The notes beneath the pieces were generated by a model. It was not told the origin of the DNA. It did not search any database and saw only the letters and a program-made list of their open reading frames with translations. A stretch of DNA of 64,000 bases from a virus. The stretch is from IMG/VR virus record IMGVR_UViG_3300050496_000069; one strand, written 5' to 3'. The first letter of the stretch is position 1; each line of letters opens with the position of its first letter. Below are positions 3,997-62,347 of the stretch, piece by piece. Both the position numbers and the translations under genes were made by a program.

Positions 3997-4703
3997 GCAC
4001 CCTCCTTCAATTCACGAATTGTCGGACCTTTGATCTCGATCGTTGAGACCGGACCTCCGGCCACATCGTCATCAAAAACGCCGATAACAAGCCTGCCTGT
4101 GTACCAAGCCAGTGTATCGAAGTTGCTCCGACCACGTAGCAACAGAGGACCGTCCTCATGCTGATGATGCCCGTGCACAACGTGAAGGTCGCCGTAGCCG
4201 TCTTCGGCGCCGTCTGGGTAAAGCATCCACGTATTCTTTTGGGCGTCCTGCTCGTCGAGCGGCACGCCGTCCTGAACGCCAGCATGCACAAAGACGCGCT
4301 TGCCATCATTGTGGGTGATTGGAAGGCCAGCCATCCACTGTAGATGGGCAAGCTCTACAACGCTGACATCAATAGCCGCGCCCACCTCGTGCCCGTAGGA
4401 CATCAGCGTTGCGCCGCCGCCGTTTGGAATCCACCACGAGCTTGCCAGACCGGGGGCGTAGCACGCCGCCATCATGATTTCTTCGTGGTTTCCTTGCAGG
4501 CAAATCCACTTCCATCGAGACGGATCGGTGGGCCCAGCCATCAGCGTCTCAATAACCTGCCGGCTTGCCGGACCGCGATCGACGTAGTCGCCAGTAAATA
4601 CAATCGTCCCGCCGCTATGGCTGGATTGCTCAATACGCTTGATTGCGGCGACAAGCAGATCATGTCTGCCGTGAAGGTCCGCTATAATGAATGTTTTGGT
4701 CAA
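3993..4703 (-). CDS. Metallophosphoesterase, Ser/Thr phosphatase family (lambda NinI/PrpA-like)
   Basis: ADLHG, GDYVDRG, LQGNHE and FVHAG motifs; TTG start after RBS GAGGAG. Confidence 0.85.
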   Translation of the reverse strand: MTKTFIIADLHGRHDLLVAAIKRIEQSSHSGGTIVFTGDYVDRGPASRQVIETLMAGPTDPSRWKWICLQGNHEEIMMAACYAPGLASSWWIPNGGGATLMSYGHEVGAAIDVSVVELAHLQWMAGLPITHNDGKRVFVHAGVQDGVPLDEQDAQKNTWMLYPDGAEDGYGDLHVVHGHHQHEDGPLLLRGRSNFDTLAWYTGRLVIGVFDDDVAGGPVSTIEIKGPTIRELKEGA

Positions 4704-4892
4704 CTGTTTCTCCTCAGTGGTGTGGTGGTTGACCTCCAGTTGGTGGCTGGCGGCCATGGTGCAGTTGGGTGTCAATTTAATTTTTTATACGAAATTGAAA
4801 TATTTAAATGGAAAACCTTTAATTCAGTATAGTAATATTAGTTATTGAGTTTTCAATGACTTATACCATAATATTAAAGAAAGAACATAAAG

Positions 4893-4988
4893 ATGAATAT
4901 ACTAATCCGTGAATTCCTACGAACATTATTGCTGTTTGTGCTTGATGAAGTTTGGGAGATGATTAAGCGTTGGTGGGATGGCGATTAA
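4893..4988 (+). CDS. Candidate 31-aa hydrophobic/amphipathic peptide MNILIREFLRTLLLFVLDEVWEMIKRWWDGD
   Basis: ORF read by eye downstream of a very AT-rich patch; stop overlaps the stop of the minus-strand gene. Confidence 0.4.
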   Translation: MNILIREFLRTLLLFVLDEVWEMIKRWWDGD

Positions 4989-6244
4989 GCCACCCCACCC
5001 CGCTTAAGTTGCTCGTTATCATTCGCAGCCGCATATCGCCCGGCTACCATCTCCGGACGCAGCGTGGAGCGCGCCACTTCGCCATATCGGCGCGAGTATG
5101 TGATGACCTTGGCAGACCGACCCGACAGCCAACCGCCGCCAGCGGCATAAGCATCCGGCGCGGCAAGCGTTTCGTGGCGCTCGACATACATCAGCGCGGA
5201 CTTGCGGCCCTCATCGCTGTGCAGGTGGCCGGCATGAGCGAAGGCATATTTCGAAGCGCCGAACATCTCGCGGAACATACCAGCCAGCGTCGCATCGACC
5301 TGAGCCACGCCGCGCTTGTGTCCGTGATGGTAGAACAGCGCCGTGTCGCCCCACTTGTAGGCGTAGTAGAGCATCGGGCTGGTATCGACGGTTACTCTCG
5401 GCTCATTCTCATAGATCGTGGCCAACAACTCGCGCACCCATACCGATGAGGCCGGATCGTGATTGCCAGAAGCCATGACGATGTGAACGTGCTTGTGCTT
5501 CTGTAGAAGCATGTCGATGACAAGGCGCAATGTGCGGATAACGACGCGAACAACCTTATGCAGGCGAGAATCGGCATCAAGGACGTGCTTGTGCGCAGGT
5601 GTGACACTCTCGAGAGCGTCATGGTGTAAAAGGTCGCCGAGCTGCGCGAGAACGGCCGTGTGCGCCTGCGGAGCGCCTGCCACAGCGGCGGCGAACCAAT
5701 CCAGCAACAACTGCTCTGCCAGCCTTAGATCGTAGTCCGCGCCGGTTTCCTCACGATGCGCCAACATACCGAAATGGCTGTCGGTCACAACGAACTGGTT
5801 GAGCAAATCTTCTTCGACGTGCTGCGGCGCGGGCATGATGGTAATGCGCGGCAGGTCTTCCTTGAGGCCGTCGACCATCGCCTTGAAAACGGCAAGCTGG
5901 CCCTCCGCTTCCACAGCCGTCTTTTGCCACTGCTGGATAACGCGCCCCTCACCATCGACGAGGGCCGACACGCCTTTGACCACGTGGCCATTGGGGATGG
6001 CGAATTTTTCGCCGCGCTCCGGAGCCTGCTGAATGAATGTGCCGCTCGGCGTGTTGCTGATGCGGCTGATGCGGAATCCTGGGAGGACAGGATCTGTGCC
6101 AAGCAGGCCAGCCTCAGCTGCCCGTTTGAGGCTTTCAGCAAGCGCCGACTTGCCGATACCAAGTGCTGCGGCCGCTTTGATCAGCGTGCCGTGCTCTCGG
6201 TAGGCGTAGGCTCTTCGGCGGAGTTCTTCGGTGGGTAGAGGCAT
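4985..6244 (-). CDS. Calcineurin-like metallophosphoesterase/nuclease with N-terminal HTH-like segment
   Basis: TDSHFG, LGDLLHHD, SGNHD, YHHGH and GHLH motifs. Confidence 0.75.
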   Translation of the reverse strand: MPLPTEELRRRAYAYREHGTLIKAAAALGIGKSALAESLKRAAEAGLLGTDPVLPGFRISRISNTPSGTFIQQAPERGEKFAIPNGHVVKGVSALVDGEGRVIQQWQKTAVEAEGQLAVFKAMVDGLKEDLPRITIMPAPQHVEEDLLNQFVVTDSHFGMLAHREETGADYDLRLAEQLLLDWFAAAVAGAPQAHTAVLAQLGDLLHHDALESVTPAHKHVLDADSRLHKVVRVVIRTLRLVIDMLLQKHKHVHIVMASGNHDPASSVWVRELLATIYENEPRVTVDTSPMLYYAYKWGDTALFYHHGHKRGVAQVDATLAGMFREMFGASKYAFAHAGHLHSDEGRKSALMYVERHETLAAPDAYAAGGGWLSGRSAKVITYSRRYGEVARSTLRPEMVAGRYAAANDNEQLKRGGVA

Positions 6245-6304
6245 GCAGTCTCCTCGATGTGGTGGTGCTTTTGGTGAAAAAGCAAGCTGGTTAGGCCGAT
6301 AATC

Positions 6305-32758: not shown

Positions 32759-33214
32759 CTACGCAAGCAAATCGCTATCTGATCTGACGCCTGCCTCGAT
32801 CTCCTTGGCTTGGTCTCGCCGCTTAGCCGCGTCCCTCGCCTCGCCTTGTACGGCGCGCGCATGCAGCGCCAGTGATCGGCGAAACGAAAGGATGGAAGAA
32901 GCGTGCATCTGGACGACGGATTTCCGTGGGTTGGCTACGGGCGTCCCTTTTTCCGTAACGGCGACCGAGCCCTCAGTACGGAGCAGGTCCTGCTCCCTCA
33001 CGAGGTCGGCCATAGTGCGGGCGAGCATTGCGGCAATCTCAAGCTGGTGCGCCGACCAGTCGGCGCGCGCGTATTCGGCAATGACATTCTTGAAAAATGG
33101 GACGTCGCCGTCGTCGAGCGGCACGTTTTCAGGAAACTGGATCTCCTCAGAAGCCACAGAGGCAATCCTCACGGCTTCATCAACGCTGTCGACGCGGCTT
33201 TTCTTATCAGACAT
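32759..33214 (-). CDS. terS: Terminase small subunit (P27-like)
   Basis: TEKGTPVANPRK..FRRSLAL motif; start MSDKK. Confidence 0.8.
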   Translation of the reverse strand: MSDKKSRVDSVDEAVRIASVASEEIQFPENVPLDDGDVPFFKNVIAEYARADWSAHQLEIAAMLARTMADLVREQDLLRTEGSVAVTEKGTPVANPRKSVVQMHASSILSFRRSLALHARAVQGEARDAAKRRDQAKEIEAGVRSDSDLLA

Positions 33215-33441
33215 GCGGAATCCCCTCGCGCACGCGCGCTTGCGCACGCGCTAGGCAAAAATCTGTGTTTGCATTTGAATTGCGTTACCCCGGCGGTCCT
33301 TGGCCGGGTCGACCGTCGACTTTTCGACCACCCCCCCGGTCGGGCAAAACCATCCATTATGTCACGGATCGAGAAAATTGTCAAGCATAAAATGTGATTT
33401 TATTAAATAAAATCAACAATTTTTCGACATTTCTTCAACCA

Positions 33442-33759
33442 TCACATCATCTCGATAGGATATCCATCAACGCCAATGACCACCGCCTGCTGGCCTCGCT
33501 CGAGGCGAGCCTTCAGCTTGTCGTGGCATGGAGCGCAAAGTGATTGCAGGTTGCTCGGGTCGTAGAACAAAGCCTCGTCGCCCTTGTGCGGCTTGACGTG
33601 GTCACACACTCTGGCCTCCGTCACATCCTCGACAGCTAGGCAGAACCGACATAGCGGCTCGGCAGCAAGCTGCGCCTCACGTAAGCGCTGCCATCGTGCA
33701 GTCTTATACATACGGCGGTAGAGAGCAGCTTCGGTTGAACGGCCGTAGAGTTTGGTCAT
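33442..33759 (-). CDS. Packaging-associated HNH endonuclease (HK97 gp74-like)
   Basis: RWQRLR..PLCRFC..CDHVKPHKGD..NLQSLCAPCH; upstream of terS. Confidence 0.9.
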   Translation of the reverse strand: MTKLYGRSTEAALYRRMYKTARWQRLREAQLAAEPLCRFCLAVEDVTEARVCDHVKPHKGDEALFYDPSNLQSLCAPCHDKLKARLERGQQAVVIGVDGYPIEMM

Positions 33760-33822
33760 TGCGCCACACCCTTATGACGTGCATTCTGACTAAGCGCGCA
33801 AGGATAAATTGGGAGTGTCAAG

Positions 33823-34845
33823 TTGGCAGAAGATCATCTGGATAAAGAAATAAGCGTCGGAGCCTCACTCACCGAAAGTGGTGTAGAGGCTAAGGCGAAC
33901 TCAAGAACGTTGGCCGCGCTTGATCGATTAGGGGGAAACCTTGTCGAATTCGGGAACGTGTATCTCGAAAAAGGACTTTCCAGGAAAAGAGCCACTATTG
34001 AAGGCGAGAAGCAAATTATCGCGGCGGTGGCGGCAAAGGCGGTTGAGGTCATCGGAAGCGATAACGCCTTTGCCGCGAGAGCGATTGCGGCCCACTTCGG
34101 GGAAGCGGCGCGAAAACAACTTAATAAAGACGGTGTGCTAGAAAAAGCCCTTGAAGACTTGCGGCACGCACCCCCTAGTCCTGAAGATGCAGGCACGGGT
34201 CCGGACACATTGGCTGATGAGTTCGTAACTCGAATAGAGCATTACTCATCTGAGGCAACCACTGAAGAACTGCGCGAACGATGGGGACGCGTTCTAGCTG
34301 CTGAAATTAGACGGCCTGGCACATTCTCAAGGGGCGTTCTCCGCGCCATAGACGAATTAGACGCCGATGCAGCTAGAATTTTCGAACAGGTCTGTCAGAA
34401 TCGCATCAGAAGAAGTCTCCCTAAAACTTTGACCGGAGAACTAAGTTTCAACACCGTTGCAAAGCTTGTGGAAGCGGGTTTATTGCTTGACCCTGGCACC
34501 GGGCATACTCTTAGTTTCTCCGAAAAATCGGACTCTGAAGGCAAAAAAGTTTGGTTTCTTAACCTCGGAAATTTTGGTGTTTCCTTCGACGCAGACAAAA
34601 GTCTAGTACTTATCGGTAGCGATCCTATCGGTGTGGACGGCAACGTTCCATATATCAAGGTCTATGTCCTCACTGAGGTGGGACACGCTGTAAGCTCGAT
34701 TTTACCTGACCATTCTGATGCCGCAGCAAAAAGGCTCATTGCATCGATTGTAAAGTTTTACCCCGACGTCTCCGTTTACTTTCAAAATAAGGCCACGAAC
34801 ACATATCGATATCTTGACCCATCATCGTTCGTGGATGCCCAATAG
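33823..34845 (+). CDS. DUF2806-like protein (moron)
   Basis: SSEATTEELRERWGRVLAAEIRRPGTFS motif; antisense to the late operon; AT-richer. Confidence 0.7.
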   Translation: MAEDHLDKEISVGASLTESGVEAKANSRTLAALDRLGGNLVEFGNVYLEKGLSRKRATIEGEKQIIAAVAAKAVEVIGSDNAFAARAIAAHFGEAARKQLNKDGVLEKALEDLRHAPPSPEDAGTGPDTLADEFVTRIEHYSSEATTEELRERWGRVLAAEIRRPGTFSRGVLRAIDELDADAARIFEQVCQNRIRRSLPKTLTGELSFNTVAKLVEAGLLLDPGTGHTLSFSEKSDSEGKKVWFLNLGNFGVSFDADKSLVLIGSDPIGVDGNVPYIKVYVLTEVGHAVSSILPDHSDAAAKRLIASIVKFYPDVSVYFQNKATNTYRYLDPSSFVDAQ

Positions 34846-35182
34846 GCATTATGCGCAGAAGCCCAACATATTTTTGGTAATCACGCCGCAATACTTTGCG
34901 CGAGAAGGCCTTTTCAATCCTTGCGAGGGCGGATAGTGCCCCCCCGATTTTTCAGGAGATCAGCGAATGCAAAGCCGACATCTAGACAACCTCGCTCTTC
35001 TTTCGGGAGCGCAACGATAGAGAGGTTTGCAAACGCCTAGCAGTACCGAGACGAGTGTACCATAACCACGCCATCTGACTTTTGCGCCCATCCTCTAAGG
35101 AGAATAACAAAAGCGGCCCGCTCAACCACTTAAGGGAACGGGCCGCATGAACCCACGCTGCGGAGGAGAACGCGCATGGGAT

Positions 35183-35259
35183 TGGTTGCGGAGGTGAGAT
35201 TTGAACTCACGGCCTCCAGCTTATGAGGCTGGCGAGCTACCGGGCTGCTCTACTCCACG
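35183..35259 (-). tRNA. Phage tRNA-Met (CAT), initiator-like
   Basis: C1:A72 mismatch, GAGC-AGCCCGGTA-GCTC D arm, CCAGC-CTCATAA-GCTGG anticodon arm, GTGAG-TTCAAAT-CTCAC T arm, encoded CCA; 77 nt. Confidence 0.9.
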
Positions 35260-35403
35260 TGATAGTTACCCAAAGCTCAGAGGCTGCAACGAGTGCAGCA
35301 TGGCGATGGGTCCGACGCTTAGAGCGCTCGGAGTGTGGTGGGGTTCGCAACTACGTTGCGCCACCCCTTCACATTACTCTCTCCGAGATCGCGGAAAGGG
35401 ACG

Positions 35404-36309
35404 TTATGACGCCGCCTTTCGTAGTGCAGCCATCAATTTGTCGTTCGCGGCCATCAGTCGACGTTTTCCTTGTCGTTCGGCCTGCTTGCCTGAGTATCCG
35501 GCCTTGGTCCCGAGATCGGACATGTTCCTCGCTGACCGCGCGGCTTCAAGCGTCGCTCTGTCTTCGTCTTTCAACTCATCAACCGCATCGAACCACTCCT
35601 TGCGATCCGCCATTGCGGCTACGATATCCTGCCACATCATCGAGCCGCCGCCGGCGCATGTGGTCTTTTGCATTCCTAGAAAGCTATCTGCGATCTTGGC
35701 GGAGCCACACGGCAGTCCATCAGGGCAGCGGGTGAATGTAACCTTGCTCATGTCGGTGTTGGCATAAGCCCTGGCCAACTGCGCCTTGGCTTCGTCGTGG
35801 CTTAGATTGATGCGAATACCCTTGTGCCTGCGCCCCGTGACGTATCTGGGCTTCTTGGTGTCCAGCATCTCGGCGAAGTAGTTGTTGCTCTCTATCACCT
35901 CACGTGGGTTTTCGTCACCGCCAAGCGCAACGTCAACCTTGTCCCGTGAACCAAGCATCGCACCTGCTGGCATCCTTGCCGCATATTCCTCAACGCCTCC
36001 GTCGATCTTAAGCCTGAACGCTCTTTCGGTCTGGCTCCCGTCACTGAACCGCAGCTTTCCGATCCGGACAACCTGCCCTGCTGGGTTCCGCTCGACGTCA
36101 CCCGTAGCAACGTTCTTCATGATCTCGGCGACAGATGGCGTTACCAGCCTTTTGCGATCGTGCTTTAGGTCTTCGATTTCGTCGGGGTTGTTGTCGTTTG
36201 CTGGGACGACAGACCAGTTAGTTTGTAGCGGCTCCGGCTGATGATCTGGTTCGGCGGCGAAGCGGCGGACCGCTGCCAGCTGCTCTGCAAGTGATCCATG
36301 TCTAGCCAT
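35404..36309 (-). CDS. Phage protein, candidate late-transcription regulator
   Basis: 301 aa just upstream of the tRNA and packaging genes; C-terminal helical HTH-like segment; function inferred from position. Confidence 0.55.
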   Translation of the reverse strand: MARHGSLAEQLAAVRRFAAEPDHQPEPLQTNWSVVPANDNNPDEIEDLKHDRKRLVTPSVAEIMKNVATGDVERNPAGQVVRIGKLRFSDGSQTERAFRLKIDGGVEEYAARMPAGAMLGSRDKVDVALGGDENPREVIESNNYFAEMLDTKKPRYVTGRRHKGIRINLSHDEAKAQLARAYANTDMSKVTFTRCPDGLPCGSAKIADSFLGMQKTTCAGGGSMMWQDIVAAMADRKEWFDAVDELKDEDRATLEAARSARNMSDLGTKAGYSGKQAERQGKRRLMAANDKLMAALRKAAS

Positions 36310-36348: not shown

Positions 36349-36825
36349 TTACTGCTGCCTGGTGTTGTCGTTATCGGCCAGCCAGCTTTTGACGAGCGAC
36401 ACGGCCTTGCTTGCCGCTTCCCCTGTGGACGTGAACCGCACCACCTCGACCGGATGCCCCAGTCTGACGAGCGATGCGTGGCGCTCGACCTGCGCAGGAG
36501 ATAGCCGGCCTTTACCAACCTTGTTCTCGATCATCCGCAGCTTGCCGCCCTTGAGGTAAATCCGTAGATCGGCTTCGCCTGGCGTCAACCCGGTGGCTAT
36601 AGCATCAGCTTGGGCACGTGGTCCGCGCTTGGCTGAATTCATGTCACCCGCGAGCAGGAACTGCCGTCCATACTCTGGCAAGGCGCGCAGCGCGCGCACC
36701 TGAGCCGCCTGCCCTTCGCTTTCCTTGATGGGTGCGTCAGCGACACTCACCTTGCCCTTGGCGCTCGTGCGGATGACCACGCGCTTCCCGTTGACGCGGG
36801 TGGTTTGGGTGGTGGCTTTTCCCAT
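36349..36825 (-). CDS. VRR-NUC domain nuclease
   Basis: GLTPGEADL..IENKVGKGRLSPAQVERH motif. Confidence 0.8.
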   Translation of the reverse strand: MGKATTQTTRVNGKRVVIRTSAKGKVSVADAPIKESEGQAAQVRALRALPEYGRQFLLAGDMNSAKRGPRAQADAIATGLTPGEADLRIYLKGGKLRMIENKVGKGRLSPAQVERHASLVRLGHPVEVVRFTSTGEAASKAVSLVKSWLADNDNTRQQ

Positions 36826-36932
36826 GGCTGTCTCCTCGTGTGGTGGCTCGCCAGTGGCGGTGGCGACACACATACTTTCCGAGAGAGGAGCGAAAACGGG
36901 TAGTCGATTTGTGAAATATTTTTTGCGCAAAC

Positions 36933-43794: not shown

Positions 43795-44024
43795 GCTTGT
43801 GCCTCCGCCCATTTGATCCACGCCAAGAGCTTCTTTGCAGGAAAGCTACGCAGTCGGCTGCCGTCATCCTTGACCTGCAGCAGGTATCCACGCGGAAACT
43901 TCTCCGGTGGCTTGAAGCCCTGAGGCAAAACCAAAGCGACGCTAGCCTTGCTCTCTTCTAGACCTAGTTCGCGCGCACCTGTGAGGCTTGCGTTGCAGGC
44001 TTCTTTCATTTCGGCGGGGGTCAT
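43791..44024 (-). CDS. Phage hypothetical protein
   Basis: 77 aa, ATGA coupled on both sides. Confidence 0.65.
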   Translation of the reverse strand: MTPAEMKEACNASLTGARELGLEESKASVALVLPQGFKPPEKFPRGYLLQVKDDGSRLRSFPAKKLLAWIKWAEAQA

Positions 44025-45277
44025 GCTGCCACTCCAAACAAATCAGCACGCCGATTGTCATTTGCCGGTACCGCAGCGGGTTCGTCATCCTTGCTAGTCG
44101 CTCCAATCGCCCACGCAATTCGAGCAGTGGCGATAGGTATGTATTCGTCCTCACGCTCGCAGCCGATAAAATGAAAGCCCTCGAAAACAGCCGCCTTGCC
44201 TGTGCTCCCTGAGCCCATGAAAGGATCAAGAATTACGCCGCCGGGTGGCGTGATAAGGCGGCAGAGCCACTGCATAAGCGTGGTGGGCTTTACGGTTGGG
44301 TGGGTGTTGGCGCGGAGCGTTTTGCCTCGCTGATAGGCATTATCCGCAGCGACGGCCGGGCCGTCGCTCGTTGTCGACTTCGTTGCGCTTTCCAGACCAG
44401 CGTCTCTGTCGGCGCGGCTGGCCTTGGCGCAGTAGAAGAAGCGGGCTGCAGATTTGTCTAGTTCGATACGTGGCGCGAAGTGCTCTCGTGCGCCAAAGTC
44501 TCCGTAGACTCCTCGGCTTTCCTTCTTGCCGTGCTCTGGCCCAACGGCACGCTGCTGCCCTGGAGCATCAGGAAACGCTGCCAGCACCTCGTCGCTACCG
44601 TCGTGGATGATGTTGGCGGGCCAGCGGCCAATTGCTACCCGACCGTCGTCTTCTGCGCCCTTAAACTGTCCATAAATTTCATTGCGGCTTGCAGACGGGT
44701 TAAAACGCTCCTCATCTCCAACCCGACAACCATCCACATTGATCGCACCCACGCCCCACTCAGCAAGGTTAGCAGCGACGGTGCCAGTCAAAGGTTTTCG
44801 CGCTAGAGCAATAGGCTCCCATGCTGGCTTGAGTGCGGTACCCCAGCCCTCCCAATCGCCATGCTGGTTGTGAGACTTCGGAAAGCCCGACCCATAAACC
44901 CAGCCAAGTTGATCGCGGATCTCAAATCCAGCATCTTCGATCGCAACAGCCATACGGTGATAGGTTCGCGTGCCAGAGAATGCCACCACGTGGCCGCCTG
45001 GCTTCAAAGCGCGCAGAACTTCGGCCCAGAACTCCTCTGAGAATGCGACCTCTCCTGTATCCCACTGCTTGCCCATGAAACCGGCAGCCCCGCGACCATA
45101 AACGTCTTTGGCCGGGGCGGAACCCGGCTTTCCGAAACGCTTCTGGATCGAGACCAGCGCATAAGGCGGGTCGGTAACGACACTGTCGATCGAGTTGTCG
45201 GCAAGGCCGCGCAACACGTCGCGGCAATCGTTTTGGTGCAGCACGACTCTTCCGTCGTGCATCGAGGTGATGCTCAC
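44021..45277 (-). CDS. DNA amino-methyltransferase (N6-A/N4-C, beta-class order), orphan
   Basis: VVTDPPY catalytic motif precedes HPTVKP and LDPFMGSGSTG SAM-binding motif. Confidence 0.92.
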   Translation of the reverse strand: MSITSMHDGRVVLHQNDCRDVLRGLADNSIDSVVTDPPYALVSIQKRFGKPGSAPAKDVYGRGAAGFMGKQWDTGEVAFSEEFWAEVLRALKPGGHVVAFSGTRTYHRMAVAIEDAGFEIRDQLGWVYGSGFPKSHNQHGDWEGWGTALKPAWEPIALARKPLTGTVAANLAEWGVGAINVDGCRVGDEERFNPSASRNEIYGQFKGAEDDGRVAIGRWPANIIHDGSDEVLAAFPDAPGQQRAVGPEHGKKESRGVYGDFGAREHFAPRIELDKSAARFFYCAKASRADRDAGLESATKSTTSDGPAVAADNAYQRGKTLRANTHPTVKPTTLMQWLCRLITPPGGVILDPFMGSGSTGKAAVFEGFHFIGCEREDEYIPIATARIAWAIGATSKDDEPAAVPANDNRRADLFGVAA

Positions 45278-45386
45278 GTTGGTTTGTCTCCTCAGACTGT
45301 GGTGTTCCCGCCGAAGCGGAAGCCGCGTTGGTGGCGCAGCGGGTGGTGTGGTAGTGTCGCCGGCGGGAATCGGGGTCGGCGAAATC

Positions 45387-46115: not shown

Positions 46116-46633
46116 GCCACCCTCACCGACAGCTGCTCACCCGCCGCACCCATCTGCGCACCGCGGACCTTCTTGCCCGCCTGCAACGCTTCCTTGATGG
46201 CGGTCTTGTCCGGCGACGTAGAAACGCGCACGTAGGCCTTCGGTAACGCGGCCTCGTCAATGATCTCAACCGACGCTGCCTTCTTGCCGATGGAGATGGT
46301 CGCCTCAGCCAGCGGTACGCGCGGTACGCCGGCTGCTTTCAACAGCTTGAACATCAGACTGCGCATGGCTTCCTTGCGGCGATCGGCCCGCGACTTGCGT
46401 GCTTGTAGGTCGGAGATGCGGCCAGCCACGGCCTTGGCCAGGCTATCGGCATCGCGCTCGCCATTGACGAGGCGAGTCAGGACGGCGTGGAAGTTGGTCG
46501 CGCCTTCCAGCATGTCGGCGCGTAGCTCTTCGTCGGCCTCGAGCTCCGGATAAGCGGCCAGCATGTCGGCGAAGAGTGCTTCTAGGTTGGCGACGTCGGC
46601 GGCTAAGAAGTTGTCGTTAGCTGGTTTGGTCAT
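46112..46633 (-). CDS. Siphovirus Gp157-like protein
   Basis: VPLAEATISIGK..IIDEAALPKAY..PDKTAIKEALQAGKKVRGA. Confidence 0.85.
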   Translation of the reverse strand: MTKPANDNFLAADVANLEALFADMLAAYPELEADEELRADMLEGATNFHAVLTRLVNGERDADSLAKAVAGRISDLQARKSRADRRKEAMRSLMFKLLKAAGVPRVPLAEATISIGKKAASVEIIDEAALPKAYVRVSTSPDKTAIKEALQAGKKVRGAQMGAAGEQLSVRVA

Positions 46634-46830
46634 GCTGCGGCTCCGACTACGCGGTAGCGCGCAACATCGCGGTTATTCCTGCTGCTCCAACGAATCTCAT
46701 CGCTGTATTCTTCGTATTGCATGCCGTTTTTCAAAACGACCTCAAGCAGGACTTCATCATCGACTGGCTGGTTGCCGCCACTCCATTCGATCCATGCAGA
46801 ATCGTCCTGCGGCGATCTTCTCTCGCTCAT
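46630..46830 (-). CDS. Small phage protein
   Basis: WIEWSGGNQPV..VARYRVV; RBS GAGGAG. Confidence 0.6.
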   Translation of the reverse strand: MSERRSPQDDSAWIEWSGGNQPVDDEVLLEVVLKNGMQYEEYSDEIRWSSRNNRDVARYRVVGAAA

Positions 46831-46877
46831 TCTCATCTCCTCAATGTGGTGACGCCATTGGTGTGGCGTAGAGTATG

Positions 46878-49303: not shown

Positions 49304-49854
49304 ACGAAATTCCAGACCTTGAGATAAACGATTGGATTGCAGGGTTATCTGCGCTCGCCGCTATTCTCGCGGCTGCTTTTGCTTTTTCGTCGGCCCGCCA
49401 AGCCAAAAGACAAGCGGACGCGGTTCTCGGAGACGTAGAGCCTGTATTCAGCGCGTATCAGATGCCAGACGACGGAGTGAATTACCGCCACAGGGCTGCA
49501 ATTGAGATAGTCAATCACAACAGGCTTCCTCTCTATGTGCTGAGTATTAGCCTCGAATTCCCTGACTGGGTGGTCGTCCACCGCGGCGCTGAGGAGGTTC
49601 GCGGTCTCGTTGCCGCGCTATACGGCGACATTATCGAAAAAAGGCGGGAGCACGTTTTTGATGTTCCCTTTCGACTTGCGGGGCGCTTTTCCAGTGATAT
49701 GCCAGCCGTTTCCACAAGCATTTTCAACGTGAACTTCATCGACCAAGATAAGCAAGGCGGATTCCATCTCGGATTTAGGATAAGTTACCGGATGCACGGA
49801 TCGAAGGATGTTCGCATTGCTTTCGCCTCGACCGGCTTCGACGTCTTGGACTAA
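49210..49854 (+). CDS. Accessory single-TM protein; start codon unclear, 5' end overlaps the helicase start
   Basis: WIAGLSALAAILAAAFAFSSARQAKRQ TM/coiled-coil; no clear ATG with RBS. Confidence 0.5.
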   Translation: MRDRQEDCQPSLTNNRKRRFLPLPGSGEVGAYEIPDLEINDWIAGLSALAAILAAAFAFSSARQAKRQADAVLGDVEPVFSAYQMPDDGVNYRHRAAIEIVNHNRLPLYVLSISLEFPDWVVVHRGAEEVRGLVAALYGDIIEKRREHVFDVPFRLAGRFSSDMPAVSTSIFNVNFIDQDKQGGFHLGFRISYRMHGSKDVRIAFASTGFDVLD

Positions 49855-50369
49855 CCCGCCTCCCGCAGCAGCCCAAGCACCCTCGCCCGCTGCTTGATGA
49901 CGATTTGGCGCACGCGCTCTTTGGTAAGGCCATGGTCATTCCCAATGGCCTCCAGCGTCTCACCCATTGCCCTACGCATCAGCATCGTGCCATTGCGGCC
50001 TTCCAGAAGAGAGACTACGCGCGACAAGTCGGTGCCCTCCTCCTGATGCGGATCGGTTGAGCCCGGCAGTTCTTCAAAGGCCGAGAGACTGCAGACTTCG
50101 GCAGAGCGCGACTTGGTGGAGTTGGTGCGAACGAACTCCTGCGCTGTCCCCCGAACGCAGAGGACGGCCCACGTCCAGAAGGTCTCAAGGCGGCATTCGC
50201 GATGCCGGCGCAACATGACGACCATCGCCGACTGAAACAGTTCATCGGCGGCGTCTTCGTTCTTCGTGATCTTTCGCGCCAGTCTCCGCAAGGCCGGCTC
50301 GTAAGCCAACAGCTTGCGGTCGAACTCGGGACTGCGCGGGTTGTTATCATTCGCCGCAATAGGTGGCAT
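49851..50369 (-). CDS. Sigma70-family (ECF-like) sigma factor
   Basis: Region 2 LRRLARKIT..ADELFQ..TFWTW; region 4 LEAIGNDHGLTKERVRQI. Confidence 0.7.
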   Translation of the reverse strand: MPPIAANDNNPRSPEFDRKLLAYEPALRRLARKITKNEDAADELFQSAMVVMLRRHRECRLETFWTWAVLCVRGTAQEFVRTNSTKSRSAEVCSLSAFEELPGSTDPHQEEGTDLSRVVSLLEGRNGTMLMRRAMGETLEAIGNDHGLTKERVRQIVIKQRARVLGLLREAG

Positions 50370-50491
50370 CGTGGTCTCCTCATGTGGTGGTTCAGGCGTT
50401 GGTGGCACCAGATTTCTCTTTGTGGATATTGATCCGTTGAGCGTTTAAACGCCCTTGGGTTGTGCTAGCGTCCCAGCAAAGTGAGGGACCC

Positions 50492-52181: not shown

Positions 52182-52469
52182 TCATAAATCCATCTCCTTC
52201 GTAAACAGGCAGCGGGCTGGCTTGTCAGGATCCTGCGTGAAAGCCAGACACCAAGGCATGCCACCGCGGCGCACCCAGTCGTCAGGCTGGCCGCCCCATA
52301 AGGCTTGCGACCGGATGACACAGACGCCGGGAACGTTGCTGCCAAACTCGTCTTCCCAGTTCTCGCCTTCATCGCTGCGACAGTGGCGGCACCAGTTGCG
52401 CTCGAAATCCTCGCCTTCGGTGGAGTTGGCGGGCCTCCAAAGCCCGCCGTTCTGGTTCTCGGCGCCCAT
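52182..52469 (-). CDS. Small Cys-rich phage protein
   Basis: PANSTEG..WCRHC..C..WCLAF. Confidence 0.6.
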   Translation of the reverse strand: MGAENQNGGLWRPANSTEGEDFERNWCRHCRSDEGENWEDEFGSNVPGVCVIRSQALWGGQPDDWVRRGGMPWCLAFTQDPDKPARCLFTKEMDL

Positions 52470-53521
52470 CAGACCCTCATAGGCATGCAAACGAGCGTAA
52501 GCCCCTCAAAGCCATCCGACGTGATCAGCCCCGGCGTGCCGCCATCCTGCAAGGCCAGCTTGACCGGCCCAGACGGCAACACGTTCAGCACGTCGCGGAC
52601 ATAGGCGGCGTTGAAACCGATATCCATTGGCTCGCCGCTATATTCCGCCTCGACTTCGTCATTCGCCGACGCCTCGCCTGCGGCCACAGCAAGTGCGATA
52701 CTGCCAGGTGCGATGCTGAACTTCACGGCGCGCCCACGTTCAGACGAAACCGTCGACACGCGGTCGGATGCCTTCATCAGCGCATCGCGATCGACCGTAA
52801 CGACACGCTCGTTGTTCTTGGGGATAACGCGCTCGTAGTCAGGGAACGTGCCGTCGATCAGCTTCGACGTAATGCGCACGTCATCCGACACGATGCGTAT
52901 TTTCTGTTGGCTTACCGCAACCTGCACCTTGCCCTTTGGAAGCAGGCTGACGGTCTTGCGCGGCACAATAATGCCCTCGAAGGCAGGCAGATCAGGGCCG
53001 TAGTGACGGCCCAGACGATGGCCATCGGTGGCTACGGCTTCCGACTTGCCACCGCCCTTGAAGAACACGCCGTTCAGATAATAGCGGGTTTCCTCGGTCG
53101 AAATGGCGAACGACACTGGCGCGAACAATCCTGCCAGATCGATCTCGAATTCAGCGTCGAACTTGTCGTCGCCGAGCGTTGGGAAGTCACCTGCTGACAG
53201 CGTGGCAAGAGAAAAGCGCGACCGTCCGGACTTCACCAGAAGCTTGTCACCATCCAGTGTCATGGTGATGTCGCCGGTTGCCTTGCGTGCGATGTCGTTG
53301 AGCAGCTTCGCGCTGACGCAGATGTTGCCTGGCTTGCCGACCTCAGCAGGCACGCCTGCGGTGGCGATAATGTCGAGGTCAGTTGCGGTGATCGCAAGGC
53401 CCTCACCTGCGGCCGCAACTTGCACGCTCGACAGGATGGGAATGGTGGATCTTGCCTCGACGACCTTCGTTGTGGCCGCAAGCGCACGCGTCAGGTCTTC
53501 CTTGTGGATGACAAGGTGCAT
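52469..53521 (-). CDS. dnaN: DNA polymerase III beta sliding clamp (phage copy)
   Basis: ATDLD, STEETRYYLNGV, ATDGHRL, SKLIDGTFPDYERVIP and LVCMPMRV motifs. Confidence 0.95.
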   Translation of the reverse strand: MHLVIHKEDLTRALAATTKVVEARSTIPILSSVQVAAAGEGLAITATDLDIIATAGVPAEVGKPGNICVSAKLLNDIARKATGDITMTLDGDKLLVKSGRSRFSLATLSAGDFPTLGDDKFDAEFEIDLAGLFAPVSFAISTEETRYYLNGVFFKGGGKSEAVATDGHRLGRHYGPDLPAFEGIIVPRKTVSLLPKGKVQVAVSQQKIRIVSDDVRITSKLIDGTFPDYERVIPKNNERVVTVDRDALMKASDRVSTVSSERGRAVKFSIAPGSIALAVAAGEASANDEVEAEYSGEPMDIGFNAAYVRDVLNVLPSGPVKLALQDGGTPGLITSDGFEGLTLVCMPMRV

Positions 53522-53586
53522 GGATGTCTCCTCGGTGATTTGTGGTGGTGCCTGCCGTGGTGAGCGGCAGGCGTGGTCTGTGGTGG

Positions 53587-56567: not shown

Positions 56568-56795
56568 TCAGCGCGCGAACAGACGGCAAAACAGCCACCA
56601 GAAGGAGCCAAGCACGACAATCGCAACGACTGCGAACGGAAACAGCGTAATCAGGCCTATGGCCGCTGCTGCTGTAACGGCGGCGATTGCACCGCGCTTC
56701 AGGCCACGACGAACGTATTTGCGCGGCGTTGGCGTGACCGGCACGTGATCGAGCGGTGGTGCGGTGATGGATTCGGTGTACCAGGGGGACGTCAT
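56568..56795 (-). CDS. Small membrane protein
   Basis: Hydrophobic C-terminal half; ATGA coupling. Confidence 0.55.
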   Translation of the reverse strand: MTSPWYTESITAPPLDHVPVTPTPRKYVRRGLKRGAIAAVTAAAAIGLITLFPFAVVAIVVLGSFWWLFCRLFAR

Positions 56796-56995
56796 CAGAA
56801 CGCTCCCAACCAAACACCTACGCCGTGGATGATGCCGACAGGTGCGACGACGCAGCCAAAGGCCAGCAGGATCCACGCACTTGCCTGAATACAGACATAG
56901 ACGTGCGTCACCCAAGCGGCGACCGCGGCGACAACAGCGCTGAGCGGCACGAGCGTGATCAGCGTCGCGCCGAGGATTGCGAAAGCATCCTTCAT
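56795..56995 (-). CDS. Small 2-TM membrane protein
   Basis: 66 aa, RBS GAGGAG. Confidence 0.6.
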   Translation of the reverse strand: MKDAFAILGATLITLVPLSAVVAAVAAWVTHVYVCIQASAWILLAFGCVVAPVGIIHGVGVWLGAF

Positions 56996-57055
56996 AAAGG
57001 TCTCCTCAATGATGTGGTGAAGTGCGGCTGGTTGGTAGCCAGCCGCTAGCGCTGG

Positions 57056-58694: not shown

Positions 58695-59035
58695 GCCGCC
58701 ACCCCACGCAGAGCATACTCATTGACTGCCTGCCCGGCCTGCAAGTCAGCATCGTCGATGTTGTCGTTCGCAGCGACGCGCGGCAGCGAAACTGGCATGT
58801 GGCCGGATAGCGTAGAGCAACCGCCGTTGTGCGGCGCCAAGTGCGTCACGCGGTCGGGATTGTTGTCGTTGGCCGGGATGAAGGTGCGCTGCTTCTGCAG
58901 GCCGTATGTGCGCCGCAGCCGCTGGTATGCGGCCATTGGCTTGACGTTGTGTCTGGCGGCAATATCTGCGACGCTCTCGCCGTTCTCACGGCGCGCGTGC
59001 ATATCCGCCAGCATAGTGCTGGTGATAAGCGTCAT
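58691..59035 (-). CDS. HTH protein, first gene of the main leftward early operon
   Basis: GESVADIAARHNVKPMAAYQRL. Confidence 0.65.
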   Translation of the reverse strand: MTLITSTMLADMHARRENGESVADIAARHNVKPMAAYQRLRRTYGLQKQRTFIPANDNNPDRVTHLAPHNGGCSTLSGHMPVSLPRVAANDNIDDADLQAGQAVNEYALRGVAA

Positions 59036-59089
59036 GTCGTCTCCTCTGAGTGGTGGTCGCCTTGTGGTTGACAAAGCGACAGGGTTATG

Positions 59090-59119
59090 AAACTAAACTA
59101 TTTTTACAAATTTGTCAAG
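59090..59119 (-). promoter_or_regulatory. Repeated early promoter-operator, copy 3
   Basis: AAACTAAACTATTTTTACAAATTTGTCAAG; divergent from regulator gene 59139. Confidence 0.8.
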
Positions 59120-59138
59120 ATTTCACCAAGGTGGATGG

Positions 59139-59741
59139 ATGCCTGAAGTTAAGTCGCGCCTCCTGCAATCGATACTGAAAGAACAGAAGCGGAGAGCCGT
59201 AAAGGATCGCGCTGTGTACGAAGAGCTAGGCGTGCCTCAGCAGACCTACAGCACCTGGAAGGCTGGCGTCATTCCAAGACCTAGGCAATTCCCGGCGATT
59301 GCCGCCTTCCTGGGTGTCTCCGAAGATGACGTGGCAGAGATGGCTCGCGAGGCGGCAGAAACCGCTCCTTCCATCACGCCTATAACGGTTGCCCGCACCT
59401 ACGGCAAAATCTCCGACCGCAAGGCTGGCAAGTTCAAGTTCGAGCCCATCAACGACGGCCGCAAACGCATTCCCGAAGGCCGTTACGCCATCGTCATCGA
59501 CACGAAGGTGATGGAGCCAGTCTTCCACGTTGGCGTGAAAGCTTGGCTCGACCCTTCCCGCTGGCCCGCCCTTGGTGACGACGTGCTTGCGCATTCGGGT
59601 GGGTTTGCTTGGATCGGGCGATTCGAAGGCATGAGCAACGGCGCTGTTCAACTGGGCCGCTACGATGGTTCGCAGCTTGAGGTGAAAAACGTGGAAGCTG
59701 TTCATGTCATCGTCCTTTCGGAGCGGGTGGTTACGGCGTAG
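59139..59741 (+). CDS. XRE HTH regulator with degenerate S24-like C-terminal domain
   Basis: ELGVPQQTYSTWKAG HTH; YAIVIDTKVMEP where GxSMxP is expected. Confidence 0.7.
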   Translation: MPEVKSRLLQSILKEQKRRAVKDRAVYEELGVPQQTYSTWKAGVIPRPRQFPAIAAFLGVSEDDVAEMAREAAETAPSITPITVARTYGKISDRKAGKFKFEPINDGRKRIPEGRYAIVIDTKVMEPVFHVGVKAWLDPSRWPALGDDVLAHSGGFAWIGRFEGMSNGAVQLGRYDGSQLEVKNVEAVHVIVLSERVVTA

Positions 59742-59785
59742 CGGGTTGGTTGCGTTATAAGGCATTAGGTGAAACCTTATAGCGC

Positions 59786-59819
59786 TTGACAATTCCTACA
59801 AATTTGTGTAGGAATTGTC
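59786..59819 (+). promoter_or_regulatory. 13-bp inverted repeat containing ACAAATTTGT; candidate promoter/operator
   Basis: GACAATTCCTACA-AATTTG-TGTAGGAATTGTC; TTGACA-17 nt-TAGGAA. Confidence 0.6.
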
Positions 59820-60289
59820 TGTCCGATGTGGTGTCGGATATGGAACACGCGCTTTGATCCCGCCTCACGGCGAAGGTCTCCTCGGCGTGTTAGTACGGAG
59901 AAGGGGCGGAGTTACGGGTGGTGCCGGCTCATTACGCCCCTTTTCGTTTTATGCTGCATGCACGACAACGCCGGCAGAGCTTCATGCTCCACCGGCGCTA
60001 AGTTTTCGAAGTCATTATTTGCGGTCTTTCTCATAGTCGTCTCCCCTTCTGGCATTATTGATTTTGTTATCGCCAGTTGGTTTCTGGCGCTTACGGCGGC
60101 CCGGTCACTGGCCGCCATCTTCTTCTGCGCTCGGGCGCCTCATGCACCCATCTTCTTCTCGCGGTCATCGCTTGGGTCGTTGACCGTCTTCTTTCGGAGT
60201 CTTTCATCACGCGCATTTCCCTTTCATTTGCAGTTTCGTCTTTCGGGTCTTTTGCCCTGCCGGCTTCTGTTTGGCCGCTGTTGATTTTG

Positions 60290-60330
60290 GTTCTACCGCT
60301 TTACCGGTTTAGTGTCAACTCTAAACCGGT
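60290..60330 (-). promoter_or_regulatory. Leftward promoter with operator palindrome, divergent from cI-like gene
   Basis: ACCGGTTTAG-N8-CTAAACCGGT; TTGACA (60318-60313)-17 nt-TAGAAC. Confidence 0.7.
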
Positions 60331-60366
60331 TTTATTTTTCGAAATTTTTCCGTTATACCGGTACGC

Positions 60367-61074
60367 ATGGCAAAGCTGAGTGACATCATAAGGTCTAAGC
60401 GCAAGGAAATGGGCTTAACGCAGAAGGCGTTCGGCAACCTTTTTGGTGCGCAGCAGACCACCGTCTCCGATTGGGAGAAGGGTAAAATATCGATGATGCG
60501 CAACTGGCAGAAGCTCGCTGTGTCTCTTGGCCTGCGCGAATCGGAATTTCTCGACCTTATGGCCGAGGCAACGACAGAATCAGAAAAGACAGAGCGGATG
60601 ATCCCTGCTCTGCGTCAGGCAACCGCGCCTCAAATCAGTACTGGTAGCATTATTGCCGCTCCTAAACCGCCGTCCGGGGAGCGTGACGTGCCCGTGCTGG
60701 GCAGGTCAAAAGGAGGGTCAGACGGTGAGTTTGAGTTTAATGGGCAGGTCATGGGCTGGGAGTGGAGGCCGCCACACCTGGCGGGAGTCGTTGAGGCTTA
60801 CGCGACGTATGTCGACGGCGAAAGCATGTACCCGAGGTATAAGCCGGGCGAAACGGTCTGGACAAATCCACCCAAGCCAATAGCGCGTGGCGACGATATC
60901 ATCGTGCAGCTAGCTCCAAATGAAGAGGATGGCGTTCCTCGCGGCTTCATCAAAGAGTTTGTGCGGTGGGAGCCAAGCTTTCTGGTCGTGTGCCAGTTCA
61001 ATCCTCCGATGGAAATCAAATATCCTCGCGATGACGTCGTCTCGATCCACAAAATCGACTACGCACAGAAATAA
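60367..61074 (+). CDS. CI/LexA-type phage repressor (HTH plus S24 peptidase)
   Basis: MGLTQKAFGNLFGAQQTTVSDWE HTH; VDGESMYP Ser and FIK Lys catalytic pair. Confidence 0.9.
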   Translation: MAKLSDIIRSKRKEMGLTQKAFGNLFGAQQTTVSDWEKGKISMMRNWQKLAVSLGLRESEFLDLMAEATTESEKTERMIPALRQATAPQISTGSIIAAPKPPSGERDVPVLGRSKGGSDGEFEFNGQVMGWEWRPPHLAGVVEAYATYVDGESMYPRYKPGETVWTNPPKPIARGDDIIVQLAPNEEDGVPRGFIKEFVRWEPSFLVVCQFNPPMEIKYPRDDVVSIHKIDYAQK

Positions 61075-61122: not shown

Positions 61123-61172
61123 TTCTCTTGTACCCAGCAAACCAAGCTGGCCACCACAAGAGGAGATACACC

Positions 61173-61526
61173 ATGTACAGACCACGTCCCGAAGAGTTTG
61201 ACGATATCGCCGTTGCCGCCCAGTCCGACGAGCCAATGAAGCGCCCGGACCACAAGGCCAAGAAGCACGGCAAGCCCAAGACGAAATATGAATACATGCG
61301 CCGCTTCCCCAAGAAGCCGCGCAACGGCGAGGAAGTCGGCGGCGGCCACTTCGTATTCCGCCGTGGCGACAGCACTGGACGCATTCGTCCCTGCATGTGG
61401 CCCTTCGAACACCCCTCCTATGATTCTGCGCTGGTCGAAGCCGCGCGCCTGCACAAAGAGCATGGCGGCATCTTTGAAGTCTTCGTTCGCGTCGGCAGCG
61501 TCGAGGCGCTTGAGGCCGGCGAATGA
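61173..61526 (+). CDS. Phage hypothetical protein
   Basis: Start MYRPRP after CACCACAAGAGGAG. Confidence 0.7.
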   Translation: MYRPRPEEFDDIAVAAQSDEPMKRPDHKAKKHGKPKTKYEYMRRFPKKPRNGEEVGGGHFVFRRGDSTGRIRPCMWPFEHPSYDSALVEAARLHKEHGGIFEVFVRVGSVEALEAGE

Positions 61527-61952: not shown

Positions 61953-61990
61953 AACACCACCCACCACCACACCACATCGAGGAGACAATC

Positions 61991-62347
61991 ATGTCCAGAA
62001 GACGCGACACTACCTACACCCCTGCCCCGTATGCCGGCGACGGTCTTGAAGTCGTAGCCAACATTTCATCTGAAACCGCACCGACTACCATTCTCGTGGC
62101 GGTCGCCAAATGGCACGAGCGCAGGAAGGACGGTCGTAATCGCGTCATCGCTTCAAGCTTCGTGCTCTCGTCGCGGCGAATGATAATGGGAGGAGAAGAT
62201 GAGGACGACAGACATATTCGTGGTGGGGATTCACCGAAGGAATCGCCTGATTTCCTCGCAGACAACTGCCCGACTAGCCCACCTGCGGGTCTAAAAACCG
62301 AAGTTTTATTTTGCATAGCACTAAAGGCGCCCCAGCGCCGGGAATGA
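61991..62347 (+). CDS. Phage hypothetical protein
   Basis: Start MSRRRD after a CACCAC-rich leader and GAGGAG. Confidence 0.5.
   Translation: MSRRRDTTYTPAPYAGDGLEVVANISSETAPTTILVAVAKWHERRKDGRNRVIASSFVLSSRRMIMGGEDEDDRHIRGGDSPKESPDFLADNCPTSPPAGLKTEVLFCIALKAPQRRE

Follow-up and report, generated by a model that had tools for sequence, protein, structure and literature searches.

Introduction

In phages P1 and P7, the c4 RNA of the immI region exposes two short sequences that pair at and around the ribosome-binding site (RBS) and block translation of the lytic-pathway operon, while the rhizobial small RNAs (sRNAs) cuckoo / alpha-r14 / NfeR1 and AbcR1/2 carry C/U-rich anti-Shine-Dalgarno (anti-SD) motifs and repress many mRNAs at the RBS. 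The OOP RNA of lambda and the sar RNA of P22 are short antisense RNAs convergent with the early operon, and they act only on the transcript that they overlap. In Cluster K mycobacteriophages, a phage-specific motif with an SD core, named SAS, lies 3-7 nt before many non-structural gene starts, is absent from the host and is kept before unrelated genes, and its authors did not decide between an RNA and a protein as its binding partner (PMC3203893). In this study, we examined positions 59,820 to 60,330 of a 64,000-nt stretch of phage DNA (the window), which comes from an IMG/VR virus record of 64,189 nt (IMGVR_UViG_3300050496_000069), and we describe in it a candidate sRNA gene whose predicted targets carry a start-site motif, as well as a leader RNA that converges on this gene.

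The main result is a putative new sRNA family with co-varying, phage-specific start-site targets, convergent with a leader that carries mini open reading frames (ORFs) and no cro. A preliminary description, made from the sequence alone, had treated the interval as one purine-rich, hairpin-studded minus-strand transcript standing where cro should be. The purine runs, hairpins, both mini-ORFs, the opposing promoter and the inverted repeat at 59788-59819 were all recovered where it had placed them; as judged from the sequence, however, the interval is two convergent RNA genes and not one transcript. We lean towards regarding it as the junction of two convergent regulatory RNA genes within a two-repressor immunity region.

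Results

The window was compared with 23 related viral contigs and two genomes that have a cI homologue at 48-99% identity and the same divergent promoter; one set of 23 was obtained whether viral contigs were searched by protein or scanned for the promoter pattern. The nearest relatives of the window phage are prophages of Agrobacterium rosae and A. tumefaciens. The block 59820-59950, formerly taken for the 3' end of the minus-strand transcript, is best read as a separate and far more conserved sRNA gene on the plus strand, and it hardly varies even where the surrounding sequence of the relatives has dropped to 72% identity. The predicted RNA (Table 1) begins with SL1, a hairpin with the loop UGUGGUG; SL2 has a covarying outer stem and leaves GUCUCCUC(C), present in a single copy, unpaired in an internal loop on its 3' side; and SL3 is a long covarying terminator stem that encloses the small hairpin CGG-GUGGUG-CCG and is followed by a U-tail. 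Run independently on the close clade and on the distant clade, RNAalifold arrived at one and the same three-domain fold, and a covariance model built from seven distant sequences only recovered the window at 42.3 bits (E 5e-10). Among 18 distinct sequences, 95.8% of the pair cells are paired, versus 38-44% with the partners slid, changes on both sides occur in 19 of the 28 pairs, and 0 of 500 shuffles reach the observed score; it counts against this reading that the covariation table uses a model-fitted alignment, which is biased towards structure, though the independent RNAalifold runs agree. G·U occupies about 80 of the 498 pair cells (~16%), which would be an A×C mismatch on the opposite strand, and the plus strand is therefore taken as the sRNA strand.

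The inverted repeat that had been noted as bounding the region, with its opposing promoter, is a perfect 13+13 palindrome that encloses CTTGACA-N17-TAGGAA on the plus strand. A consensus promoter scanner missed this promoter, whose -10 ends in A, and the pattern CTTGACA-N17/18-TAnnnn is conserved in the relatives. U-tailed terminators can be read in the sequence of the plus strand. Rfam gave nothing in the region at gathering score and only chance-level matches over 59400-60700 at E up to 10; in nine relatives at E up to 0.5, it gave only the trpB-motif (35.7 versus 59 bits) and Phe-leader (30.4 versus 55 bits). No description of this sRNA or of the start-site motif was found in the literature. 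The family thus appears to be new, having no Rfam model, and the conserved fold indicates that the block is very probably a real structured RNA gene of the plus strand.

The candidate targets were disclosed by a repeat search, which showed a resemblance between the GUCUCCUC segment of the sRNA and the plus strand around the start of the first early gene, so the mRNA there is complementary to the sRNA. The resulting signature, defined as CACCAC-N(1-14)-GAGGAGAC located 3-6 nt upstream of a start codon, has 13 occurrences at 11 places in the window versus 0.03 expected, each followed by an ORF and mostly within the 36-59 kb early region. All relatives have it upstream of their first early gene, whatever the identity of that gene. 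In the host genomes, the prophage (~55 kb) holds 14 of the 30 signature matches in one 5.5-Mb host and 9 of the 14 in another; a reversed-pattern control gave 9 matches in each of the two hosts, and the non-prophage ~5 Mb is no higher than this control. The signature is phage-specific. Near-consensus variants (CACCAC...AAGGAGAC or ...GGGGAGAC) were also observed at the minus-strand starts 56478, 55039, 54423, 36309 and 42515, and with these the target set may rise from 11 to about 15 genes.

The two elements stand in the order expected for antiparallel pairing at two sites, the mRNA reading 5'-CACCAC...GAGGAGAC-3' and the sRNA 5'-GUCUCCUC...GUGGUG-3'. What we regard as the strongest evidence for pairing, as read from the aligned sequences, is that sRNA and start sites change together. 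In prophage G018 the sRNA has GUCUCUCC, and the start sites have GGAGAGAC in 7 of the 8 signature sites of the 20 kb examined, where GGAGAGAC was counted 9 times versus 1 for GAGGAGAC. In G022 the sRNA has AGCUCCUC and the start sites GAGGAGC(U), and the SL1 loop of both G153 and G022 includes UGGUA, with UACCAA elements in their start regions; these G022 and UACCAA co-variations rest on few sites, which tells against the pairing. The co-varying bases lie outside the core that pairs with 16S ribosomal RNA (rRNA), and therefore the ribosome does not explain the changes. RNAduplex of the sRNA against all start regions gave a mean of -39.5 kcal/mol for motif sites versus -30.0 kcal/mol for the rest, with unrealistically long loops, and is not relied on. 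Taken from these comparisons, pairing of the sRNA with the signature is quite likely, and repression of translation is slightly favoured as its effect.

Concerning distribution, every related virus record tested has one copy of the sRNA, including those with ~3 kb between sRNA and leader, and in related virus records its gene is always convergent with the PR operon and always has an HTH2 homologue directly 5' of it. It was found in 7 of 48 Agrobacterium species genomes (about one in seven) and in 4 of 151 Rhizobiaceae. In the wider order (151 genomes searched), only the reference genome itself matched, the 150 further genomes giving no new member. A public phage collection gave a single 52-nt match, to the virulent Agrobacterium phage Milano (MK637516.2). 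Milano carries an unannotated homologue at ~53080-53198 (L082:2442-2560; 23 bits), located in the gap between the co-directional genes Milano_089 and Milano_090 with no cI/PR context, and its genome has zero copies of the CACCAC...GAGGAGAC signature. The presence of the sRNA without the signature argues for trans action on targets other than Milano's own genes.

On the minus strand, a PR-like promoter with its -35 inside the operator palindrome is conserved in all relatives and would start a leader RNA near 60283. Folding of the 241-nt leader gave z = -3.1, a stability that none of 200 shuffles attained, and, as had been noticed before, each of three hairpins on this strand directly follows a purine run. 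The first run is GAAAGAAGA and the other two are AGAAGAAGA, which occurs 3 times in the 64 kb versus 0.54 expected, with two copies 33 nt apart in the leader. The runs are invariant in the 72%-identity relatives, and one AGAAGAAGA run is retained in relatives whose cI is only 48-55% identical. The complement of AGAAGAAGA, UCUUCUUCU, was sought in the sRNA and is absent from it. In 11 relatives, compensatory changes accompany the conservation of hairpins 2 and 3, and some of the pairs are U·G wobbles, which on the plus strand would turn into A×C mismatches; both hairpins are thus structures of the minus-strand RNA. Across the related Agrobacterium and Rhizobium prophages (n=23), the purine runs, hairpins, mini-ORFs and opposing promoter recur. 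The frame, RBS and AGA codons of ORF1 are also kept; hairpin 1, as such, and the peptide sequences are not. A terminator stands at the position of hairpin 4 in L013/L014 and L025; in the window, a consensus terminator scan of the minus strand from 60283 to 59950 found none.

ORF1, the first mini-ORF of the leader, was said to use tandem rare AGA codons, and this holds, as 8 of its 12 Arg codons are AGA, versus 8% of the Arg codons in the long ORFs of the phage, which contain only one in-frame AGA-AGA pair in 15,406 codons. Across 18 sequences, AGA makes up 126 of the 176 Arg codons of ORF1, in runs of 2-4. It has an SD sequence and an ATG in 23 of 23 loci, the purine runs are always read in the AGA (Arg) frame, and indels of 18 nt and 3 nt are both in frame. 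The peptide itself varies from 25 to 48 amino acids (aa) with unrelated N-termini. Its end is GPP-stop in the window clade and L015, and PP-AGA-AGA-AGA at or near the stop in most of the distant clade; in every relative the stop codon is found within a GC-rich hairpin or no more than 3 nt ahead of one. A U-tract follows this hairpin, making it an intrinsic terminator by sequence, in 6 of 9 sequence groups (L013/14, L025, L017/22, L018/19, L023 and L020/21). No alternative anti-terminator pairing was identified at ORF1, and the window holds no phage tRNA-Arg(UCU) able to decode the AGA runs, its only tRNAs being tRNA-Lys and tRNA-Met.

ORF2 reads as had been described, with 40 codons and a good RBS (SD GGGGAG). 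Its SD and first codons (ATGAGAAA) are conserved and its length varies from 10 to 49 codons. The predicted sense/antisense overlap was borne out, since the last 39 nt of ORF2 are antisense to the plus-strand sRNA gene. The shared conserved bases under its C-terminus are read in differing frames among the relatives, and it is therefore the sRNA, rather than a protein, that accounts for the conservation; ORF2 is, by this comparison, not a conserved protein. The absence of cro at this place also stood, as neither ORF1 nor ORF2 has a Pfam or PHROG match. A cro-type HTH protein (about 60-80 aa) as first PR gene was rejected, ORF1 and ORF2 being 41 and 40 aa long, without a family match and not conserved as peptides. 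A type III toxin-antitoxin system (ToxI-like) was likewise rejected, as the three ~34-nt units are degenerate and are followed only by a 40-codon ORF without a family match and by no toxN. The 152-aa plus-strand ORF at 59826-60284 has no Pfam or PHROG match, is fragmented in relatives and is taken as spurious.

In five relatives (L004, L005, L012, L015 and L025), six to eight hairpin modules of ~65 nt stand in tandem after leader hairpin 3, observed on the minus strand of each locus at L004:2000-2700, L012:2000-2720, L015:2300-2700 and L025:2000-2760. The stems of the modules are variable, and GGCC-N(about 10)-GAAA(A/C)CC is found in most of the loops; the modules have no Rfam match and are absent from the window. 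In module-bearing relatives, the PR operon has an extra gene of 320-448 aa between the modules and the sRNA (L076:1693-2655(-), L077:1681-2775(-), L074:1747-3093(-)), with no Pfam match and with matches to PHROGs 4285 and 2199 ('transposase') at E 1e-10 to 1e-13. In L073 (G018:C12, ~32777-35919), the sRNA lies only ~150 nt from the cI-like gene, so that this prophage seems either to lack the long leader that bears ORF1 and ORF2 or to have a much shorter one.

The studied interval lies in the 625-nt gap between two repressor genes, cI and HTH2, and the early genes run on the minus strand from 59035 downward. The ATG of cI has no SD upstream, and its mRNA is probably leaderless. The operator palindrome (ACCGGTTTAG...CTAAACCGGT) is invariant in the 11 closest relatives and almost so in distant ones. 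Within 60330-60369, a TTATAC -10 at 60353-60358 stands 8 nt upstream of the cI ATG with a poor -35 that adjoins the operator palindrome, a geometry similar to that of lambda PRM with its leaderless cI mRNA, and a third ACCGGT covers the cI start (60358-60363). The S24-like tail of HTH2 reads with Val at the catalytic Ser position (D-T-K-V-M-E-P versus D-G-E-S-M-Y-P in cI), and self-cleavage is probably absent. The HTH2 stop is immediately followed by an inverted repeat (11+11; 59752-59785) that has no U-tract and is found in no relatives but the four closest; the sequence has a mosaic boundary at ~59790.

Table 1. Positions of the features discussed, in coordinates of the window
Feature	Position	Strand	Basis and remarks
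sRNA promoter CTTGACA-N17-TAGGAA inside 13+13 palindromic operator, core ACAAATTTGT	59786-59819	+	sequence, inverted-repeat search; palindrome 59788-59819
Predicted sRNA, ~130 nt, SL1/SL2/SL3 and U-tail	59821-59950	+	fold, RNAalifold, covariance model
PR-like early promoter	60290-60318	-	sequence reading; -35 TTGACA 60318-60313, 17-nt spacer, -10 TAGAAC 60295-60290
Three purine runs, each directly 5' of a hairpin	60195-60187, 60159-60151, 60126-60118	-	sequence
Leader hairpin 1	60186-60162	-	sequence, fold; not conserved as such
Leader hairpin 2 (GGGUGC / GCGCCC)	60133-60149	-	fold and covariation; pair 173-183 is AU:6, UG:3, CG:1, GU:1
Leader hairpin 3 (9 bp), over last ORF1 codons	60093-60118	-	one compensatory CG/GC pair, one minus-strand-only U·G wobble
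Leader hairpin 4, 1 nt past ORF1 stop, no U-tract in window clade	60071-60090	-	sequence, fold
ORF1, 41-codon mini-ORF, three in-frame AGA runs, ends GPP-stop	60091-60216	-	translation, codon counts, relatives
ORF2, 40 codons, SD GGGGAG at 60046-60041	59912-60034	-	translation
Operator palindrome centred on -35 of minus-strand promoter	60303-60330	both	inverted-repeat search
cI-like repressor (HTH_3 and peptidase S24)	60367-61074	+	Pfam, PHROG phrog_4; G-E-S-M-x-P and Lys motifs read in translation
HTH2, second HTH repressor-like gene, S24-like tail	59139-59741	+	Pfam, PHROG, translation
Second copy of operator core ACAAATTTGT, overlapping TTGACA of minus-strand early promoter	59100-59121	both	repeat search
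Signature at first early gene (CACCAC, 3 nt, GAGGAGAC, 3 nt, ATG)	59033-59058	-	repeat and pattern search
Signature, gene 56795-56995	57001-57019	-	pattern search
Signature, gene 52469-53521	53527-53550	-	pattern search
Signature, gene 49851-50369	50375-50389	-	pattern search
Signature, gene 46630-46830	46836-46851	-	pattern search
Signature, gene 44021-45277	45287-45304	-	pattern search
Signature, gene 36349-36825	36831-36845	-	pattern search
Signature, gene 4985-6244	6249-6267	-	pattern search
Signature, gene 3993-4703	4709-4727	-	pattern search
Signature, gene 61173-61526	61152-61166	+	pattern search
Signature, gene 61991-62347	61962-61985	+	pattern search

Discussion

With reference to the systems described above, the predicted sRNA resembles c4 as an immunity-region sRNA with apparent two-site pairing at the RBS. 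However, c4 is processed from the transcript of its single target, whereas for the sRNA here a separate promoter and terminator can be read in the sequence, and its targets, apparently about a dozen, are dispersed; the Rfam C4 model gave no match in the two relaxed searches reported above, and the fold differs. With cuckoo / alpha-r14 it has the anti-SD motif in common, again without a match to the Rfam models. Its motif GUCUCCUC is single and lies in an internal loop, in contrast to the repeated CCUCCUCCC loops of those sRNAs, and it extends 3' past what 16S rRNA can pair with. In addition, the sRNA here carries a non-SD element (GUGGUG versus CACCAC) that would give phage specificity, its predicted targets being the phage's own genes. 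The sRNA, in its predicted action, is like c4 and the rhizobial anti-SD sRNAs, yet it belongs to neither family, as both model tests failed. It is convergent with the early operon like OOP and sar, but it has dispersed complementary sites and, in Milano, no overlapping partner. The closest analogue of the start-site signature that we can name is SAS, which is alike in position and phage specificity; the sequence and the host phylum differ, and here the same phage encodes a complementary, co-varying sRNA, while no such partner of SAS has been described.

ORF1 shares with leader-peptide attenuators (pyrBI, tnaC, his/trp) a conserved short ORF with an RBS, tandem regulatory codons and an end that overlaps a hairpin or terminator. 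It differs from them in that no anti-terminator pairing was identified, the window clade has no U-tract, the codon is a rare one and not that of an end product, and the ORF occupies the position of cro. In Escherichia coli, AGA runs before a stop and a C-terminal Pro-Pro are established ribosome-pausing signals. The best reading of ORF1 may be that its translation matters rather than its product, and that a ribosome held at its end would block the adjacent hairpin or terminator. Of the three options offered by the preliminary description, an AGA-stalling attenuator is the one that fits best, with the conserved RBS and ATG, the in-frame indels, the stop at the hairpin and the U-tract of six of the nine groups in its favour. 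A translation-dependent attenuator is a reasonable candidate to which we give somewhat less than even confidence.

The leader could instead be purely non-coding, with ORF1 incidental and the purine runs binding a protein, such as Hfq, whose distal face takes (ARN)n triplets, or acting as a protein sponge. We judge this unlikely, although several observations point that way: AGAAGAAGA is kept at the nucleotide level including third codon positions, the peptide has no sign of selection on it, the hairpins show compensation at the RNA level, and (AGA)3 obeys the A-R-N triplet rule of the Hfq distal face. That rule would nevertheless allow variation that is not observed, and an incidental ORF1 does not agree with an SD and ATG that set the AGA frame, not GAA or AAG, at every locus, with indels that keep this frame, or with a stop that always falls in a GC hairpin or a few nt from one. 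A functional Arg-rich peptide, whether an N-like antiterminator arm as formerly suggested, an RNA-binding peptide or a small anti-repressor, would account for the Arg-rich runs and the GPP motif of all clades and for a boxB-like GNRA-type hairpin (GCGCC-GAAA-GGCGC) inside ORF1, seen in distant relatives only and with no boxA recognised by reading without a model. It is improbable, because against the ~72%-identity relatives the differences fall 5/4/6 over the codon positions, with no third-position bias, and 8 codons are non-synonymous versus 5 synonymous; the length and N-terminus are not conserved, one relative has a premature stop, rare AGA prevails although a peptide constraint would permit CGN, no family matches, and the peptide is much shorter than N proteins, which have about 100 aa. 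On these grounds the lambda N-type peptide is not supported. It is very improbable that the hairpins followed by UCUUCUUCU are plus-strand terminators insulating cI from read-through of the sRNA promoter, with the minus-strand features as their mirror image: a scan does flag 60095-60116 (+) and the operator palindrome followed by a T-run, but hairpins 2 and 3 keep wobbles possible on the minus strand only, the sRNA has a strong terminator of its own, and distant relatives have the better U-tract on the minus strand.

As for the sRNA, a cis-only role as antisense RNA or convergent-transcription barrier against the PR transcript, in the manner of OOP and sar and with the signature complementarity as a by-product, agrees with the constantly convergent arrangement and with perfect complementarity to any read-through transcript. 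It is quite unlikely, given that sRNA and start-site motifs change together in two prophages, that the motifs lie at predicted unpaired positions and that the Milano copy sits between co-directional genes. Even less credence, very little in all, is due to reading the block 59820-59950 at the DNA level, as a protein-binding array or recombination site, or as RNA of the minus strand; its place between two operators and a minus strand that folds well too (z = -2.2) would suit such readings, while the stems change sequence yet stay paired with G·U on the plus strand only, the promoter and U-tailed terminator are on the plus strand, and the block moves to other contexts as a unit.

The reading that we favour is a trans-acting sRNA and a translated leader, and some points weigh against the scheme that joins them. 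The promoters, ends and strands of the transcripts are deduced from sequence and covariation, and both -10 elements (TAGGAA, TAGAAC) are weak. In the window clade and L015, the ORF1-end hairpins have no U-tract, so that a termination read-out is not evident in the window, and ORF1 of L004 has a nonsense codon directly after its first AGA-AGA-CGA run, which also favours a non-coding leader. Downstream of cI, two plus-strand genes (61173 and 61991) have a signature copy before them, which is awkward for an sRNA that would be a purely lysogenic silencer of lytic genes. Moreover, the common operator core means that the sRNA may be made alongside the early genes, as a shut-off timer, and not in the lysogen; T4 RegA is the protein analogue of such a timer. 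Alternatively, the sRNA may be made in the lysogen as an immunity factor, by analogy with c4 of P1.

In the wiring that we propose, the sRNA would be a stand-alone, trans-acting RNA with its own operator-controlled sigma-70 promoter and intrinsic terminator. The sRNA promoter and the divergent HTH2/early promoter have a common palindromic core, ACAAATTTGT, which overlaps TTGACA, and therefore one regulator would control both, plausibly HTH2. Through its GUCUCCUC internal loop and two GUGGUG loops, the sRNA would pair with the signature of about a dozen, mostly early, phage genes, covering the RBS and repressing translation. The cI-repressed PR-like promoter would make the leader in place of cro, and the rare AGA codons and Pro-Pro-stop of ORF1 (AGA-AGA-AGA-stop in relatives) would slow the ribosome where the GC hairpins and terminators form, so that translation of ORF1 would set how much transcription goes on past the leader. 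As the consensus scan found no minus-strand terminator between 60283 and 59950, PR transcripts could read antisense through the sRNA and HTH2 genes. We hypothesise that PR firing after cI cleavage would in this way neutralise the second immunity layer, linking cI cleavage to its loss. An anti-sRNA role of the leader is a tentative suggestion; like repression, pausing and read-through, it is predicted from the arrangement of the locus.

A more speculative joint reading, which we put forward with considerable doubt, is that CACCAC...GAGGAGAC is a private start code on the early genes read by one sRNA, a second, RNA-based immunity layer that would act on the whole set of early genes simultaneously, those of superinfecting relatives included, and that the SOS-sensitive cI would lift via the antisense leader. 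The Milano sRNA would then be a weapon that silences resident prophages, and the same logic could explain SAS-type motifs elsewhere.

In summary, the region appears to be a temperate-phage switch without cro, in which the repressor that is SOS-cleavable has nothing but a leader RNA, with its rare-codon mini-ORF, under its control, and this leader runs towards a second repressor, which is apparently not cleavable, and the sRNA that goes with it. The predicted sRNA family, for which Rfam has no model, is also present, unannotated, in the isolated and sequenced phage Milano. Phage start-site motifs have been known since 2011 (SAS) without a known reader, and here a candidate sRNA reader is found in the same genome and co-varies with its sites, which makes the idea of a start code directly testable by compensatory mutations.

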